DNA of 37,728 bases from assembly GCA_050942765.1 (NCBI GenBank), contig JBMNNY010000002.1, positions 1-37,728 of the forward strand, given 5' to 3'. The notes beneath the pieces were generated by a model. The model was not told the DNA's origin and ran no database searches. It worked only from the letters and a program-made list of their open reading frames with translations. Each line of letters opens with the position of its first letter. Position 1 is the first letter of the stretch. Position numbers and translations under genes: made by a program. Source of the DNA: Bacillota bacterium. Its GTDB lineage: Bacteria > Bacillota > UBA4882. Below are positions 5,969 to 33,062 of this stretch, piece by piece.

Positions 5969-6149
5969 GTAAAAGCCCCCTTTCATATGCGAAACCGATG
6001 AAAACTTCTGCTTACGGTATCAGTATATCGCAGGAAAGTTTCTGTGTGATTAGCACGTTTTACAAAATTGTTGCAGACTATTAAATAACATATGAAATAG
6101 CAATGCACGACGGCGCGGTGCATTCGTGGAGCGCAGCTCGTCGCGCGCA

Positions 6150-6231
6150 GCGCGCCACACGCCGCGCCGCACGCCACACGCCACCCGCCGCGCCGCACGC
6201 CACACGCCACCCGCCGCGCGCCGCACGCCGC
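6150..6231. repeat. GC-rich imperfect microsatellite (CGCCACA/CGCCGCG/CGCCACC heptamer-like units)
   Basis: cgccacacgccacccgccgcg occurs twice in tandem context; begins at the stop codon of the Fe-ADH-like gene. Confidence 0.8.
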
Positions 6232-16978: not shown

Positions 16979-17055
16979 TGGTCGGGGCGAGAGGATTTGA
17001 ACCTCCGGCCTCTTGGTCCCGAACCAAGCGCTCTACCAAGCTGAGCCACGCCCCG
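16979..17055 (-). tRNA. tRNA-Pro, anticodon CGG
   Basis: CGGGGCG acceptor stem, GCTC D-stem, CTTGG-TTCGGGA-CCAAG anticodon arm, GGTTCAAATCC T-arm, encoded CCA; 77 nt. Confidence 0.97.
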
Positions 17056-17136: not shown

Positions 17137-17239
17137 AAGGTATCTATTAGTTTTTTCCCTTGATTTTACCTTGATCTGATTTTGCCATATTTTAATTTTA
17201 AAGGTTAGGCTGAATTGGAGAGATGAAAGGGGCAGTGCA

Positions 17240-17938
17240 GTGAACACGGTTAGTATATCAATGGCCTTTTTGGCCGGTTTGGCTTCTTTCTTTTCACCAT
17301 GCGTCCTGCCGCTGGTGCCGGTTTACTTTGGAGTCCTTACCGGAACCTCGCTGACCGAGCTATTTGAGAATCCTGGTCAGGCCAAGTTACTGCCTCGTGC
17401 GATCGCTTTTGTGACTGGCTTCAGTGTCGTCTTTATCACCTTAGGAATGTCCGCCAGTCTGCTCGGAAGCCTCCTCTTGTCCTATCGCCGTTACCTGGAG
17501 ATTGGCGCTGGCGTTTTGGCGATTATCTTCGGTTTGCACTTCACCGGGATTGTCCAGATACCTTTACTCAACAGACAGCATCATGCAGCCCAATCCTCAC
17601 CAGCGCACACCGGTATCTGGCCATCCTTTTTGCTGGGCATGGCGTTTTCGCTGGGCTGGACTCCCTGCGTTGGTCCTGCTCTTGGTACCATTCTGGGAAT
17701 GGCCAGTACTACTGGCACAGCACTGAGTGGTTTTTTGCTTTTAATCTGCTATTCTCTTGGTCTGGGTGTGCCTTTTATATTGGCAGCGGCATTTATCAGA
17801 TACCTCTTCCCCAAATGGAGCAAAATTGCGCGCTATGCCCGGATTGCTCAGTTTGCTGGAGGCATTCTCATGATTATTGCCGGTCTGCTGCTAATAACCG
17901 GATACTTTACTCGCCTTTCCGGTCTCTTGGGAGGTTAA
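17240..17938 (+). CDS. ccdA: CcdA-type thiol-disulfide transmembrane electron transporter (cytochrome c biogenesis)
   Basis: AFLAGLASFFSPCVLPLVP and FSLGWTPCVGP motifs, YSLGLGVPF, about 6 TM helices. Confidence 0.92.
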   Translation: MNTVSISMAFLAGLASFFSPCVLPLVPVYFGVLTGTSLTELFENPGQAKLLPRAIAFVTGFSVVFITLGMSASLLGSLLLSYRRYLEIGAGVLAIIFGLHFTGIVQIPLLNRQHHAAQSSPAHTGIWPSFLLGMAFSLGWTPCVGPALGTILGMASTTGTALSGFLLLICYSLGLGVPFILAAAFIRYLFPKWSKIARYARIAQFAGGILMIIAGLLLITGYFTRLSGLLGG

Positions 17939-17957
17939 TCTTTTACTTCAGCGGCGG

Positions 17958-17985
17958 CAAGGATTCAACCGTCATGCTGCCGAAT
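17958..17985 (+). promoter_or_regulatory. sigma-H-like promoter (CAAGGA-N18-GAAT) upstream of the riboswitch
   Basis: Consensus match about 20 nt before the riboswitch P1. Confidence 0.5.
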
Positions 17986-18006
17986 AGCCTCATAACTGAA
18001 TAAAAT

Positions 18007-18207
18007 CCTTCGAGCTCAACGCCCTAAAGCAGCTGCGACGTGCGACTTTACGCATGTTGCGCAGATGACACCGGTTGCGCAGATGGCGCAGGTTACCCAG
18101 GTAGCCTTAGGTAGCCTCAGGTTGCCTCAGGCCGCCCGCAGATTGCCATGGGTCTGAGCCGCCAGGGTATATGCGGAAACGCCTATGCCTCCCTTTTGGA
18201 AAGAAGG
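18007..18207 (+). ncRNA. Moco-RNA-class riboswitch candidate, P3-less tungsten-cofactor type
   Basis: P1 CCTTC/GAAGG; P2 GCTCA..CCCTAA / ATGGG..TGAGC (tetraloop-receptor-like); AGGGTATATGCG-GAAA-CGCCTATGCCTCCC; 3' TTTGGAAAG; upstream of tupA. Confidence 0.8.
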
Positions 18208-18329
18208 TGATACTGAAGCTGCCTTGTAGATGCAGGTGATTTTGCAGATGCGGGACAAGCGTATTAACAATGCCTGCGAAACCAACGATGCCCGGTAATA
18301 AAATTTAAGGATTTAAGGAGATTTGATGC

Positions 18330-19181
18330 ATGAATAGAAAGAAACTGGTTTTGCTTTCACTTTTAATGTTAGTCGTTGCAGCCGGCGCAGCCTTGAGTGT
18401 TCAGGCGAATGAACCGGCTATTAAAGATGTTATATTAGCAACCACTACAAGCACTCAGGACAGCGGATTGCTGGACGTGCTGATTCCCATTTTCGAGAAA
18501 GATACCGGCTATAAAGTTAAGACGATTGCCGTTGGAACCGGACAAGCTCTGGCTTTGGGGGAACGTGGTGAAGCGGACGTTTTACTGGTACACGCGCCTG
18601 ACAGCGAAAAACCCCTGGTTGAATCGGGTGTCTGTATCAACCGCCAGCTGGTAATGCACAATGACTTCATTATTGTCGGTCCTGCGAAAGATCCTGCCAA
18701 AATTAAAGGCATGCGCTCGGCGGCCGAGGCATTTCGCAAAATCGCCGAAACCAAATCGCTTTTTGTCTCCAGAGGCGACAACTCCGGAACGCATAAAATG
18801 GAGCTCAATATCTGGAAGTCCCTCTCAATCACTCCTGCTTCTGCCTGGTATCAGGAAACCGGCTCCGGTATGGGTCAAACCCTGAATGTGGCTTCGTACA
18901 AACACGGTTATACCCTTACAGACCGCGCCACCTACCTGGCTCTGAAAAAGAATCTCGACCTGGACATTCTGGTGGAGGGCGATCGCATCCTTCTGAACAT
19001 CTATCACGTCATGCAGGTCAACCCGGCGAAGTTCCCCAAGGTTAACGGCCCCGGTGGCGCCGCCTTTGTGAGTTTCATGGTCTCCAAGTCGACGCAGGAA
19101 ATTATCGGAAAGTTCGGTCTTGATCAATTCGGACAGCCGCTGTTCTTCCCGGATGCAGGCAAAAAAGTCGAGGATCTATAA
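18330..19181 (+). CDS. tupA: Tungstate ABC transporter substrate-binding protein
   Basis: ATTTSTQDSGLL (TTTS tungstate motif), VGTGQAL, VHAP, SRGDNSGTH, YTLTDRATY. Confidence 0.93.
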   Translation: MNRKKLVLLSLLMLVVAAGAALSVQANEPAIKDVILATTTSTQDSGLLDVLIPIFEKDTGYKVKTIAVGTGQALALGERGEADVLLVHAPDSEKPLVESGVCINRQLVMHNDFIIVGPAKDPAKIKGMRSAAEAFRKIAETKSLFVSRGDNSGTHKMELNIWKSLSITPASAWYQETGSGMGQTLNVASYKHGYTLTDRATYLALKKNLDLDILVEGDRILLNIYHVMQVNPAKFPKVNGPGGAAFVSFMVSKSTQEIIGKFGLDQFGQPLFFPDAGKKVEDL

Positions 19182-19200
19182 AGCACGATAAAAGCGCAGC

Positions 19201-19233
19201 AAAAGGGCGGTTCAGTGAACCGCCCTTCGTTTT
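19201..19233. terminator. Bidirectional intrinsic terminator
   Basis: AAGGGCGGTTCA-g-TGAACCGCCCTT with A/T tracts, between convergent genes. Confidence 0.85.
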
Positions 19234-19275
19234 GGAAAACCTAACATGTTTCCTGCCAAAGGTTTCCTGTCAAGG

Positions 19276-19521
19276 TCAGTCGTAACAACCCTGCCTGATT
19301 CCTTCGGCATTGACTGTGGAGTCATAGCCGCAATTCCGGCAACGAATATAAGCCGGCACAGTGCCTCCAACCAATTTGCCATAATCCAGGCAGTCCTTTT
19401 GACATACCGGACATTTGATAGGCTGCCGCGTGGATATAATGCGGTAACTTGGCAGTTTCATGGCATATTCAATCTTCTCAATAATGTCCTGCCATTTTTC
19501 TTGCTCAATAACAGCGAACAC
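19276..19521 (-). CDS. Small zinc-ribbon protein (81 aa)
   Basis: CPVC...CRNC; GGAGGGAG RBS before GTG; own promoter-like motif and terminator. Confidence 0.7.
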   Translation of the reverse strand: MFAVIEQEKWQDIIEKIEYAMKLPSYRIISTRQPIKCPVCQKDCLDYGKLVGGTVPAYIRCRNCGYDSTVNAEGIRQGCYD

Positions 19522-32165: not shown

Positions 32166-33062
32166 TTAGTCTTGATCAGGCTGTTGAGTCGGGTCATCCA
32201 ACTGATCCGGCGCCACTTCTGCATCCCTTGCTGCCTGTTCCGGCGCAGTCTGCTCTTGTGTAGTCTGTTCATTCATAGTCTGTTCACCAGTAGACTGTTC
32301 CTTTCGCGTCTGTTCCGGCGCAGTCTGCTCTGGCGCAGATTGCTCCGGCGCCTGCTTTTTCTCGGCCGATGCCTGATCGTCCAAGAATTGCAGTACAAAA
32401 TCAAGATGCTCAGAAATGGAGTCGGCGCATTCCTCATATTCGGCAAGATCGCCGCCGTAAGGGTCGGCAATATCGGGCGGACTACCCAGCAATTGATTCA
32501 ACTGCTTAATATTTACGCCTATTTCCGTTATGAGCTGGCCAGAAATGCGACGCAACTCGGCCTCAACCTTGATTAGTTCGTTGCGCAAAGCTTCACGCCT
32601 GGCCTCCAACTCCCTAATCTGCTTCAGCGGCTCCAGTCCCATTAGTTTCCGGGCTGCTTCACGAATCTCCGTGCGGAAACTGTCCGCCTCCTCCGGTTCA
32701 GCTTTCGTTAGGGCCGTCAACTCTGCCAGAGTATAGACTTTGCTCAGCGCTTCAGGAACGAGCGCTAAAACAGCTTTCTTATGGTTACGGGTCATGGTAA
32801 TCACAAGATCGGCATTGATTATGTCGGAAGCCTCAAGTAACTTTGACTGATGCCCCGATAAATCGAGATTTCTGTTTTTCATGGCTGCAATGGCATTCTC
32901 AGAAGCCGGTCCTCCTAAAAAAGCGGAAACTCCAGCTGAAGACACAACAATGTCCTTTGCCCATGATGCAGAATGCTTGGCCAGCTTACTGCGCAGCAGA
33001 GCTTCCGCCATCGGGCTTCGGCAAGTGTTTCCACTACATACAATCAGAATTCTTCTGATCAT
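32166..33062 (-). CDS. ywlE: Low-molecular-weight protein arginine phosphatase with an internal coiled-coil insertion and repetitive tail
   Basis: P-loop CSGNTCRS (Thr typical of YwlE), SAG, DIADPYGG; position between sua5 and rpiB; GGAGG RBS before ATG 33062. Confidence 0.85.
   Translation of the reverse strand: MIRRILIVCSGNTCRSPMAEALLRSKLAKHSASWAKDIVVSSAGVSAFLGGPASENAIAAMKNRNLDLSGHQSKLLEASDIINADLVITMTRNHKKAVLALVPEALSKVYTLAELTALTKAEPEEADSFRTEIREAARKLMGLEPLKQIRELEARREALRNELIKVEAELRRISGQLITEIGVNIKQLNQLLGSPPDIADPYGGDLAEYEECADSISEHLDFVLQFLDDQASAEKKQAPEQSAPEQTAPEQTRKEQSTGEQTMNEQTTQEQTAPEQAARDAEVAPDQLDDPTQQPDQD

Follow-up and report, generated by a model that had tools for sequence, protein, structure and literature searches.

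The window analysed here, 37,728 nucleotides of a Bacillota bacterium (GTDB lineage UBA4882; assembly GCA_050942765.1, contig JBMNNY010000002.1, positions 1 to 37,728 of the forward strand), contains a gene for a TupA-like tungstate-binding protein whose leader RNA carries an aptamer of the Moco RNA riboswitch family, which is associated with the molybdenum cofactor (Moco) and the tungsten cofactor (Tuco). A gene for a DsbD-type membrane protein (17240-17938) lies upstream of the riboswitch, and a V-type ATPase operon on the opposite strand lies downstream of tupA. The element at 17996-18221 is a genuine member of the Moco RNA family that lacks the paired element P3, and the tip of its P2 helix is enlarged by an insertion of 112 nt that contains short tandem repeats. 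The features of the locus are collected in Table 1.

Table 1. Features of the riboswitch and tupA locus, in window positions.
Feature	Position	Strand	Basis
Moco/Tuco riboswitch aptamer (RF01055)	17996..18221	+	covariance-model match, 226 nt
P1 5' strand CCUUC	18007..18011	+	covariance-model alignment; partner GAAGG 18203-18207
P2 5' strand (GCUCA..CCCUAA AGCA), with receptor bulge UAA 18025-18027 and distal 4-bp P2b	18014..18031	+	covariance-model alignment
112-nt insertion, P2 tip	18032..18143	+	RF01055 alignment, 112 nt versus 4 nt in the model consensus
Tandem array A, period 18 (9+9), units with palindrome TGCGCA	18050..18094	+	Tandem Repeats Finder: 2.5 copies, 77% matches, score 62
Tandem array B, period 10, units with palindrome CCTNAGG	18098..18131	+	Tandem Repeats Finder: 3.4 copies, 87% matches, score 54
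P2 3' strand (UGCC AU GGG UCUGAGC)	18144..18159	+	covariance-model alignment
P4 hairpin, GAAA tetraloop 18176-18179	18165..18190	+	covariance-model alignment; minimum-free-energy fold retains P4
Conserved 3' core CCUCCC-UUUU-GGAAAG, then P1 3' strand GAAGG (18203-18207)	18188..18207	+	covariance-model alignment
Leader, no canonical terminator; Shine-Dalgarno AAGGAG 18315-18320	18208..18329	+	terminator scans, folds, alignments
tupA-type tungstate-binding protein gene, 283 aa, signal peptide, ATTTST motif	18330..19181	+	profile and structure-sequence matches
Intrinsic terminator after tupA: 11-bp G+C-rich hairpin, then CGUUUU	19203..19233	+	-21.8 kcal/mol, z-score -3.62

RF01055, the Rfam covariance model of Moco and Tuco RNAs (curated gathering score 36 bits), matches the element over the full length of the model (positions 1-135) with 50.8 bits and an E-value of 1.9e-9. 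The score is significant with the insert in place, which the model handles as an insertion, and three further searches of the whole genome with RF01055, two of them with stricter filters, recovered the same element. A first-pass annotation of the window, made from the letters alone, had proposed membership in the family and the absence of P3. Both proposals are borne out, and the helices, GAAA cap and CCTCCC core that it had named are all found in the alignment where it had placed them, while its concern that automated scans might miss so enlarged a variant proved unfounded, as the Rfam model detects it at the curated threshold. Within the core, CCUCCC occupies 18188-18193 and UUUUGGAAAG occupies 18194-18203, and the CCUCCC...UGGAAAG columns are invariant across alignments of 11 and of 9 representatives. 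The bulges UAA (18025-18027) and AU (18148-18149) align to the CCUAA and AU-GG tetraloop-receptor positions of the model. Every model position of P3 is deleted, P2 being followed by CG-CC and then by P4, and three pairs in the middle of P2 are non-canonical. The minimum-free-energy fold of the whole 226 nt retains P1, P2 and P4. The traits of the family that were tested at the level of the sequence (the score, the GAAA tetraloop with its P2 receptor, and the core residues) are thus all present.

Regulski et al. (2008; PMC2408646) reported that the GNRA tetraloop of P4 docks into a receptor in the P2 bulge, that 58 of 176 Moco RNA representatives are without P3, that the occurrence of the P3-less ones correlates with tungsten-cofactor metabolism, and that the one from E. 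coli acts as an OFF switch. The link between P3-less representatives and tungsten metabolism that the first-pass annotation had mentioned is this correlation. The element in the window combines the two traits associated with the Tuco subclass, namely the absence of P3 and a tungsten-related, TupA-like gene downstream.

The insert is located beyond the tetraloop receptor, in the loop at the end of P2. It had initially been described as a repeat expansion of about 110 nt separating the P2 arms, and this description stands, with units of 9-10 nt detected by Tandem Repeats Finder. The ends of the insert pair with each other (GCAGCUGCG with CGCAG-A-UUGC, the outermost 9 bp) and so extend P2. Array A can also be read with a period of 9 (18059-18091, score 31), the match rate between repeat units in the insert is 58-87%, and by eye the stretch 18050-18144 resolves into about ten units of 9-11 nt that follow the pattern GCNCAGRTN or GCCTNAGGTN. 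Chance does not account for two adjacent arrays, because a triplet-shuffled copy of the 2.16-Mb genome gives just 5 arrays with a score of at least 50. The insert is predicted to adopt a multi-branched fold of -54.5 kcal/mol (z-score -3.29), and none of 200 shuffled sequences was equally stable. The stability of the predicted fold is explained by the palindromes in the units (TGCGCA, CCTNAGG), which let neighbouring copies pair. An origin of the insert from a dispersed or mobile element was ruled out, since blastn-short against the genome found the insert itself and no second copy, all other matches being of 17 nt or less.

The product of the gene behind the riboswitch scores 234.3 bits (E-value 1.6e-69) against the NCBIfam model NF041772 (TupA) and 169 bits against Pfam PF12849 (PBP_like_2). 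As the NF041772 score does not reach the equivalog cut-off of 400 bits, we call the gene TupA-like and not a certified equivalog. Among solved structures the product matches 3muq_A (245.7 bits), 5my5_A (244.8 bits) and 3lr1_A (220.1 bits), the last a tungstate-binding protein of Geobacter, and its LATTTST segment is aligned. We take the TTTS motif to be diagnostic of TupA. The terminator hairpin with its U-run directly 3' of the gene indicates that tupA is monocistronic. The gene order agrees with the early description of tupA as an orphan: permease and ATPase genes are not adjacent to it, as they would be in a TupABC operon, and tblastn found no second tupA in the genome. A TupB-like gene (NF041773, 157.8 bits) and a gene for an ABC-type ATPase, the homologues of tupB and tupC, are found on a separate contig, C118, which carries neither of the two RF01055 matches in the genome.

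The genus is represented by one other available member, G001, and the class by 58 genomes. RF01055 has 11 matches in the class, distributed over 7 of the 58 genomes; nine of them span 117-131 nt, and the remaining two are the 226-nt match of the window and a 172-nt match in G001 (L009:1501-1672, 52 bits). The latter is the orthologue of the riboswitch in the window and lies in the same gene order, between a DsbD-like gene and tupA. The two aptamers are identical at 33 of 34 positions of the 5' core and 61 of 68 positions of the 3' core, and the tupA coding sequences are 82% identical, with divergence in the leader, upstream spacer and insert. The aptamer is therefore conserved at least as well as tupA, which indicates purifying selection. 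The three mismatches in P2 are common to both species. G001 also carries an insert at the same P2 tip, with a length of 62 nt, no tandem repeats, and a predicted fold that is no better than that of shuffled sequences (z-score -0.51). When metagenomes were scanned for a 22-nt pattern of the core, two further contigs (L091 and L092) were returned; they belong to the G001 type and carry two substitutions in or beside the insert. A comparison of repeat numbers among relatives, which the first-pass annotation had suggested, thus came to nothing, the insert of the sole congener being non-repetitive and the two metagenome contigs being of its type. Other members of the class have extras of about 6 and about 11 nt at the P2 tip, which suggests that this tip is variable in length in general.

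Riboswitches upstream of TupA homologues in other genomes place the length of the element in a wider context. Of 80 such loci, Rfam was run on 40; the motif prefilter missed at least two true matches (L045, L071), and the remaining 40 loci may hold more. The scanned loci contain 34 RF01055 matches, 29 of 100-125 nt and 5 of 150-220 nt, and in these five long RNAs (L031:1217-1436, L015:1294-1479, L026:1086-1240, and 1321-1470 in both L023 and L027) the additional 13-100 nt lie in P3, not in P2. The TupA homologues beside the enlarged-P3 RNAs come from other Bacillota and have 66-71% identity. L031 contains no tandem array, and L015 contains a single array with a period of 13 nt. The occurrence of P3-bearing Moco RNAs before tupA homologues does not fit a simple rule equating the absence of P3 with tungsten. 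In a sample of 151 genomes from the phylum, the best 150 of 252 RF01055 matches reach at most 166 nt. The 226 nt in the window thus form the longest match among the 11 of the class, the 34 of the tupA loci (maximum 220 nt) and the best 150 of 252 in the phylum, and among the relatives examined, with the same best 150 of 252 matches for the phylum, large P2-tip insertions are confined to this genus.

The insert does not differ between the window and the contigs compared from sequencing runs. A 1-kb stretch of the locus was found in 14 DNA sequencing runs, which belong to 5 studies that sampled sludge and digesters (2020-2024). The assembly may derive from any of these runs, and all 14 contain 100% of the sampled 31-mers. 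Contigs of two DNA runs from different studies show no differences and no gaps relative to 17200-19300, i.e. over 2101 bases. RNA-library contigs from two further studies span the insert (17810-18510 and 18026-18294) without a difference inside it; the first of these differs from the window at 17926, 17947, 17962 and 18419, none of which lies in the riboswitch. All runs were compared as contigs, which hide rare variants and reveal neither starts, ends nor levels of transcripts, and the RNA libraries may contain DNA. No length variant of the insert occurs in the contigs compared, with the proviso that contigs drop rare variants. A contingency locus would have near-perfect repeats of varying copy number, whereas the units here match at 58-87% and did not vary in these contigs. 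The early suggestion that the number of repeats tunes folding or expression is therefore unsupported.

Short tandem repeats are frequent throughout this genome. After merging, Tandem Repeats Finder reports 464 arrays in its 2.16 Mb (215 per Mb), compared with 13 arrays in 206 kb of congener G001 (63 per Mb), 8 arrays in 295 kb from 80 other genomes (27 per Mb), and 5 arrays in the triplet-shuffled control of 2.16 Mb (2.3 per Mb). The density is thus roughly 3 to 8 times that of the comparison DNA. Inside open frames of at least 150 codons, the period is divisible by 3 in 221 of 248 arrays, and outside long open frames it is not divisible by 3 in 152 of 216; since the bias towards multiples of three is seen inside and not outside of long open frames, the arrays are biological. 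Other arrays in the window include those at 6142-6231 and 32235-32351. Among 14 matches to cis-regulatory RNAs that were checked in the genome (9 T-box, 1 cobalamin, 2 thiamine pyrophosphate (TPP) and 2 Moco), two contain arrays, the tupA riboswitch and the longest T-box leader (C19:65-466, minus strand; L110). This T-box leader, with 402 nt and 92 bits slightly under the gathering score of 93, has an array with a period of 10 nt (C19:169-204) inside an insertion of roughly 86 nt, and its units, read on the RNA strand, resemble GCGUAAGGUA.

A single repeat family behind all arrays was rejected, since 5-mer enrichment reveals an unrelated GGGAC/CCCCA motif and GCGCA[AG] occurs in just 29 of 464 units. 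The most enriched 5-mer is GGGAC, with 44 arrays against 10.9 expected. A motif near ATCGATTGGGGACA recurs in array units across contigs (e.g. C38:9799-9848, C77:18154-18187, C153:4387-4450 and C223:756-822), which suggests a dispersed repeat family.

Some observations concern the wider setting of tungsten genes and Moco RNAs in this genome. Upstream of the tupB-like and ATPase genes on C118, in the place where a gene for a binding protein would be expected, there is an open reading frame of 217 aa without an NCBIfam match (L093:3222-3875, minus strand). The second Moco RNA of the genome (C41:10244-10363, minus strand; L001, L094), which scores 76 bits and is also P3-less, precedes genes for an NAD-type aldehyde dehydrogenase (TIGR01236-like, 543 aa) and a thiamine-pyrophosphate enzyme instead of a gene for cofactor synthesis or transport. 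This may provide a backup, independent of the cofactor, for aldehyde oxidation that depends on tungsten. In the window, a tRNA gene (67.5 bits; 16982-17055, minus strand) lies upstream of the DsbD-like gene, a position that is kept in G001.

The leader between aptamer and tupA also shows traces of duplication. An 18-nt tandem duplication (18224-18236 and 18242-18254) is present here and absent from G001, and a perfect direct duplication of 8 nt, ATTTAAGG ATTTAAGG (18303-18319), runs into the tupA Shine-Dalgarno sequence AAGGAG. The first ATTTAAGG copy is complementary to the region of the P1 5' strand (AAAUCCUU, 18003-18010), and this is not conserved in G001. Two complementarities were followed between the species: AAAUCCUU with AAGGAUUU is lost in G001, AAAGCAGCU with AGCUGCCUU is retained there with a bulge, and neither is accompanied by covariation. 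The segment CUGCCUU of the leader has a complement in AAAGCAG of P2 and a weak one in the Shine-Dalgarno sequence, again without support from covariation; these complementarities suggest that a three-way competition may take place. The leader of G001 forms a hairpin of -13.5 kcal/mol that has no adjacent U-run.

Together, we consider it probable that a functional P3-less switch controls the monocistronic tupA gene, and that the insert at the tip of its P2 is a tolerated expansion that arose from the tandem duplication seen genome-wide. Judging by the published correlation with P3 and by the tupA context, the switch would sense Tuco, and by analogy it would lower tupA expression when the cofactor is plentiful. 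To our knowledge, direct binding of a ligand has never been demonstrated biochemically for the Moco RNA class. The insert may have started from an extension of P2 that was already present at the level of the genus, and would then have been enlarged to 112 nt by local tandem duplication of 9-10-nt units. Such duplication would be either unusually active or unusually well tolerated in this species, and the same process would have littered the genome with arrays. The insert is presumably tolerated rather than used, and neutral, as both of its ends pair and merely lengthen P2. The P2 tip beyond the tetraloop receptor presumably faces away from the ligand-binding core; with the insert distal to the receptor and pointing off the core, tolerance would be explained.

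A number of observations weigh against this interpretation. The score of 50.8 bits is well below the 76.1 bits of the other Moco RNA copy in the genome, and the gap is due in part to the three non-canonical pairs in P2 and not solely to the insert. A consensus scan found no canonical terminator in the leader, in which the best hairpin with a T-run reaches only -3.6 kcal/mol, while in 15 of the 20 other representatives linked to tupA a T-run follows a hairpin of -10 kcal/mol or better, and four abut the start codon. Folds of the full leader contain no clear helix after the aptamer that would sequester the Shine-Dalgarno sequence, and in the minimum-free-energy fold of the whole leader the Shine-Dalgarno region pairs with the 5' aptamer strand only across about 300 nt. 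A consensus scan of the plus strand upstream found no sigma-70-like promoter, and the RNA-library contig 17810-18510 runs uninterrupted from inside the DsbD-like gene into tupA. The comparison of the orthologous switches is based on two species of the genus. That the enlarged aptamer is active is something we infer from conservation alone, and neutrality, the most likely state of the insert, is argued from its context; the z-score of its predicted fold could also mean selection for structure.

Alternative explanations give these observations different weight. It is unlikely that the repeat-built extension of P2 is itself functional, either because it tunes co-transcriptional folding and the response to ligand or because a variable copy number sets tupA expression. 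A long insertion at the P2 tip has been retained in both species of the genus, and 112 nt between the two P2 strands must presumably delay the closure of P2 during transcription, but the insert of G001 differs in length, in repeats and in the significance of its structure. The stable multi-branched fold predicted for the window's insert speaks for a function as well, yet it is accounted for by the palindromes in the units. Copy-number switching is disfavoured by the imperfection of the units, which argues against slippage, and by the constancy of the insert across the 14 DNA runs, the two DNA contigs and the RNA contigs, and some 216 other arrays lie outside long open frames in the same genome. 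Less probable again is the broader idea that genome-wide tandem duplication actively remodels structured regulatory RNAs (the Moco riboswitch, its leader and the T-box leader), and thereby alters the kinetics of riboswitch folding or the thresholds of the response; if it were true, it would provide a natural route for the evolution of aptamer peripheries. We find it still less likely that the riboswitch is decaying, its sensing disabled by the insertion together with the three P2 mismatches, and tupA being expressed constitutively or by read-through from the upstream gene. The score deficit of 25 bits, the non-canonical pairs, the lack of a recognisable terminator or promoter in the scans, and the unbroken RNA contig would all fit decay. 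However, the mismatches are common to both species and hence old and tolerated, the aptamer core is 90-97% identical between them while leader, spacer and insert have diverged, the tetraloop and its receptor are preserved along with every invariant residue of the core, and contigs from RNA libraries cannot reveal transcript ends and may derive from DNA.

Two further explanations concern the repeats as such. The phased palindromes might be sites for a protein that binds DNA or RNA and provides a second regulatory input, given that three CCTNAGG palindromes are exactly 10 nt apart (18106-18132) and two copies of TTGCGCAGATG are 18 nt apart. We regard this as very improbable: tandem duplication of any unit yields such phasing automatically, the distribution does not resemble a regulon (GCCTNAGGT is rare, with 14 sites in the genome, and TTGCGCAGATG is confined to its 2 sites in the insert), the motifs are absent at the orthologous site of G001 and in the two related metagenome contigs, and there is no regulator gene beside tupA. 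To an assembly artefact we assign a negligible probability, even though the genome is a metagenome-assembled draft of 231 contigs and short repeats are prone to misassembly, because the contigs from two DNA runs of different studies are identical over the locus, RNA-library contigs from two further studies span the insert, the arrays are imperfect and far shorter than a read, and arrays inside open frames are under period-3 selection throughout the genome. The preferred explanation therefore continues to be an intact, P3-less riboswitch with a tolerated expansion of P2.

The locus shows that a Moco/Tuco aptamer with more than 100 additional nt at its P2 tip can remain both conserved and recognisable to the standard model. 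The P2 tip is thus a permissive site, which may be useful for engineering or for structural constructs, and the 62-nt and 112-nt inserts form a natural pair with which an effect of peripheral length on a cofactor riboswitch could be examined. As regards tungsten biology, the locus appears ordinary, with what would be a cofactor-sensing leader before the gene for a tungstate-binding protein. The repeat-rich genome, with some of its arrays inside regulatory RNAs, may be a more interesting lead than the riboswitch itself. In the accessible parts of the literature on the Moco RNA motif, on the Moco riboswitch (2015 onwards) and on tandem-repeat expansion of riboswitch aptamers, we found no description of an expansion of P2.

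With the P3-lacking, or Tuco, class of Moco RNAs, the element in the window shares P1, P2 with its receptor, the GAAA-capped P4, the core, and a downstream gene for tungstate transport. It differs from the representatives examined in its repeat-built P2 tip of 112 nt, where the model consensus has 4 nt, and no canonical expression platform was found in its leader by the scans and folds described above. The switch of congener G001 and the two related metagenome contigs have the same synteny, a nearly identical core, no P3 and an insertion at the same P2 tip, but the G001 insert is shorter, at 62 nt, without repeats and without a significant fold, and the 18-nt duplication is absent from its leader. 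The expanded-P3 RNAs linked to tupA are likewise enlarged (150-220 nt) and precede TupA homologues; their additional 13-100 nt lie in P3, whereas those of the window element lie in P2. The encoded protein has in common with the TupA of TupABC systems (NF041772; PDB 5my5, 3lr1) the PBP_like_2 fold family, a signal peptide and the ATTTST motif, but it scores under the equivalog cut-off, and its gene stands alone, with TupB-like and TupC-like genes on another contig. The P3 stem of eukaryotic TPP riboswitches is long and variable, so that there, too, the tip of a peripheral stem tolerates large lineage-specific changes in length while the ligand pocket is left untouched. Unlike in the TPP riboswitches, the added length in the window element is visibly composed of short tandem duplications, in a bacterium whose genome is rich in such arrays.

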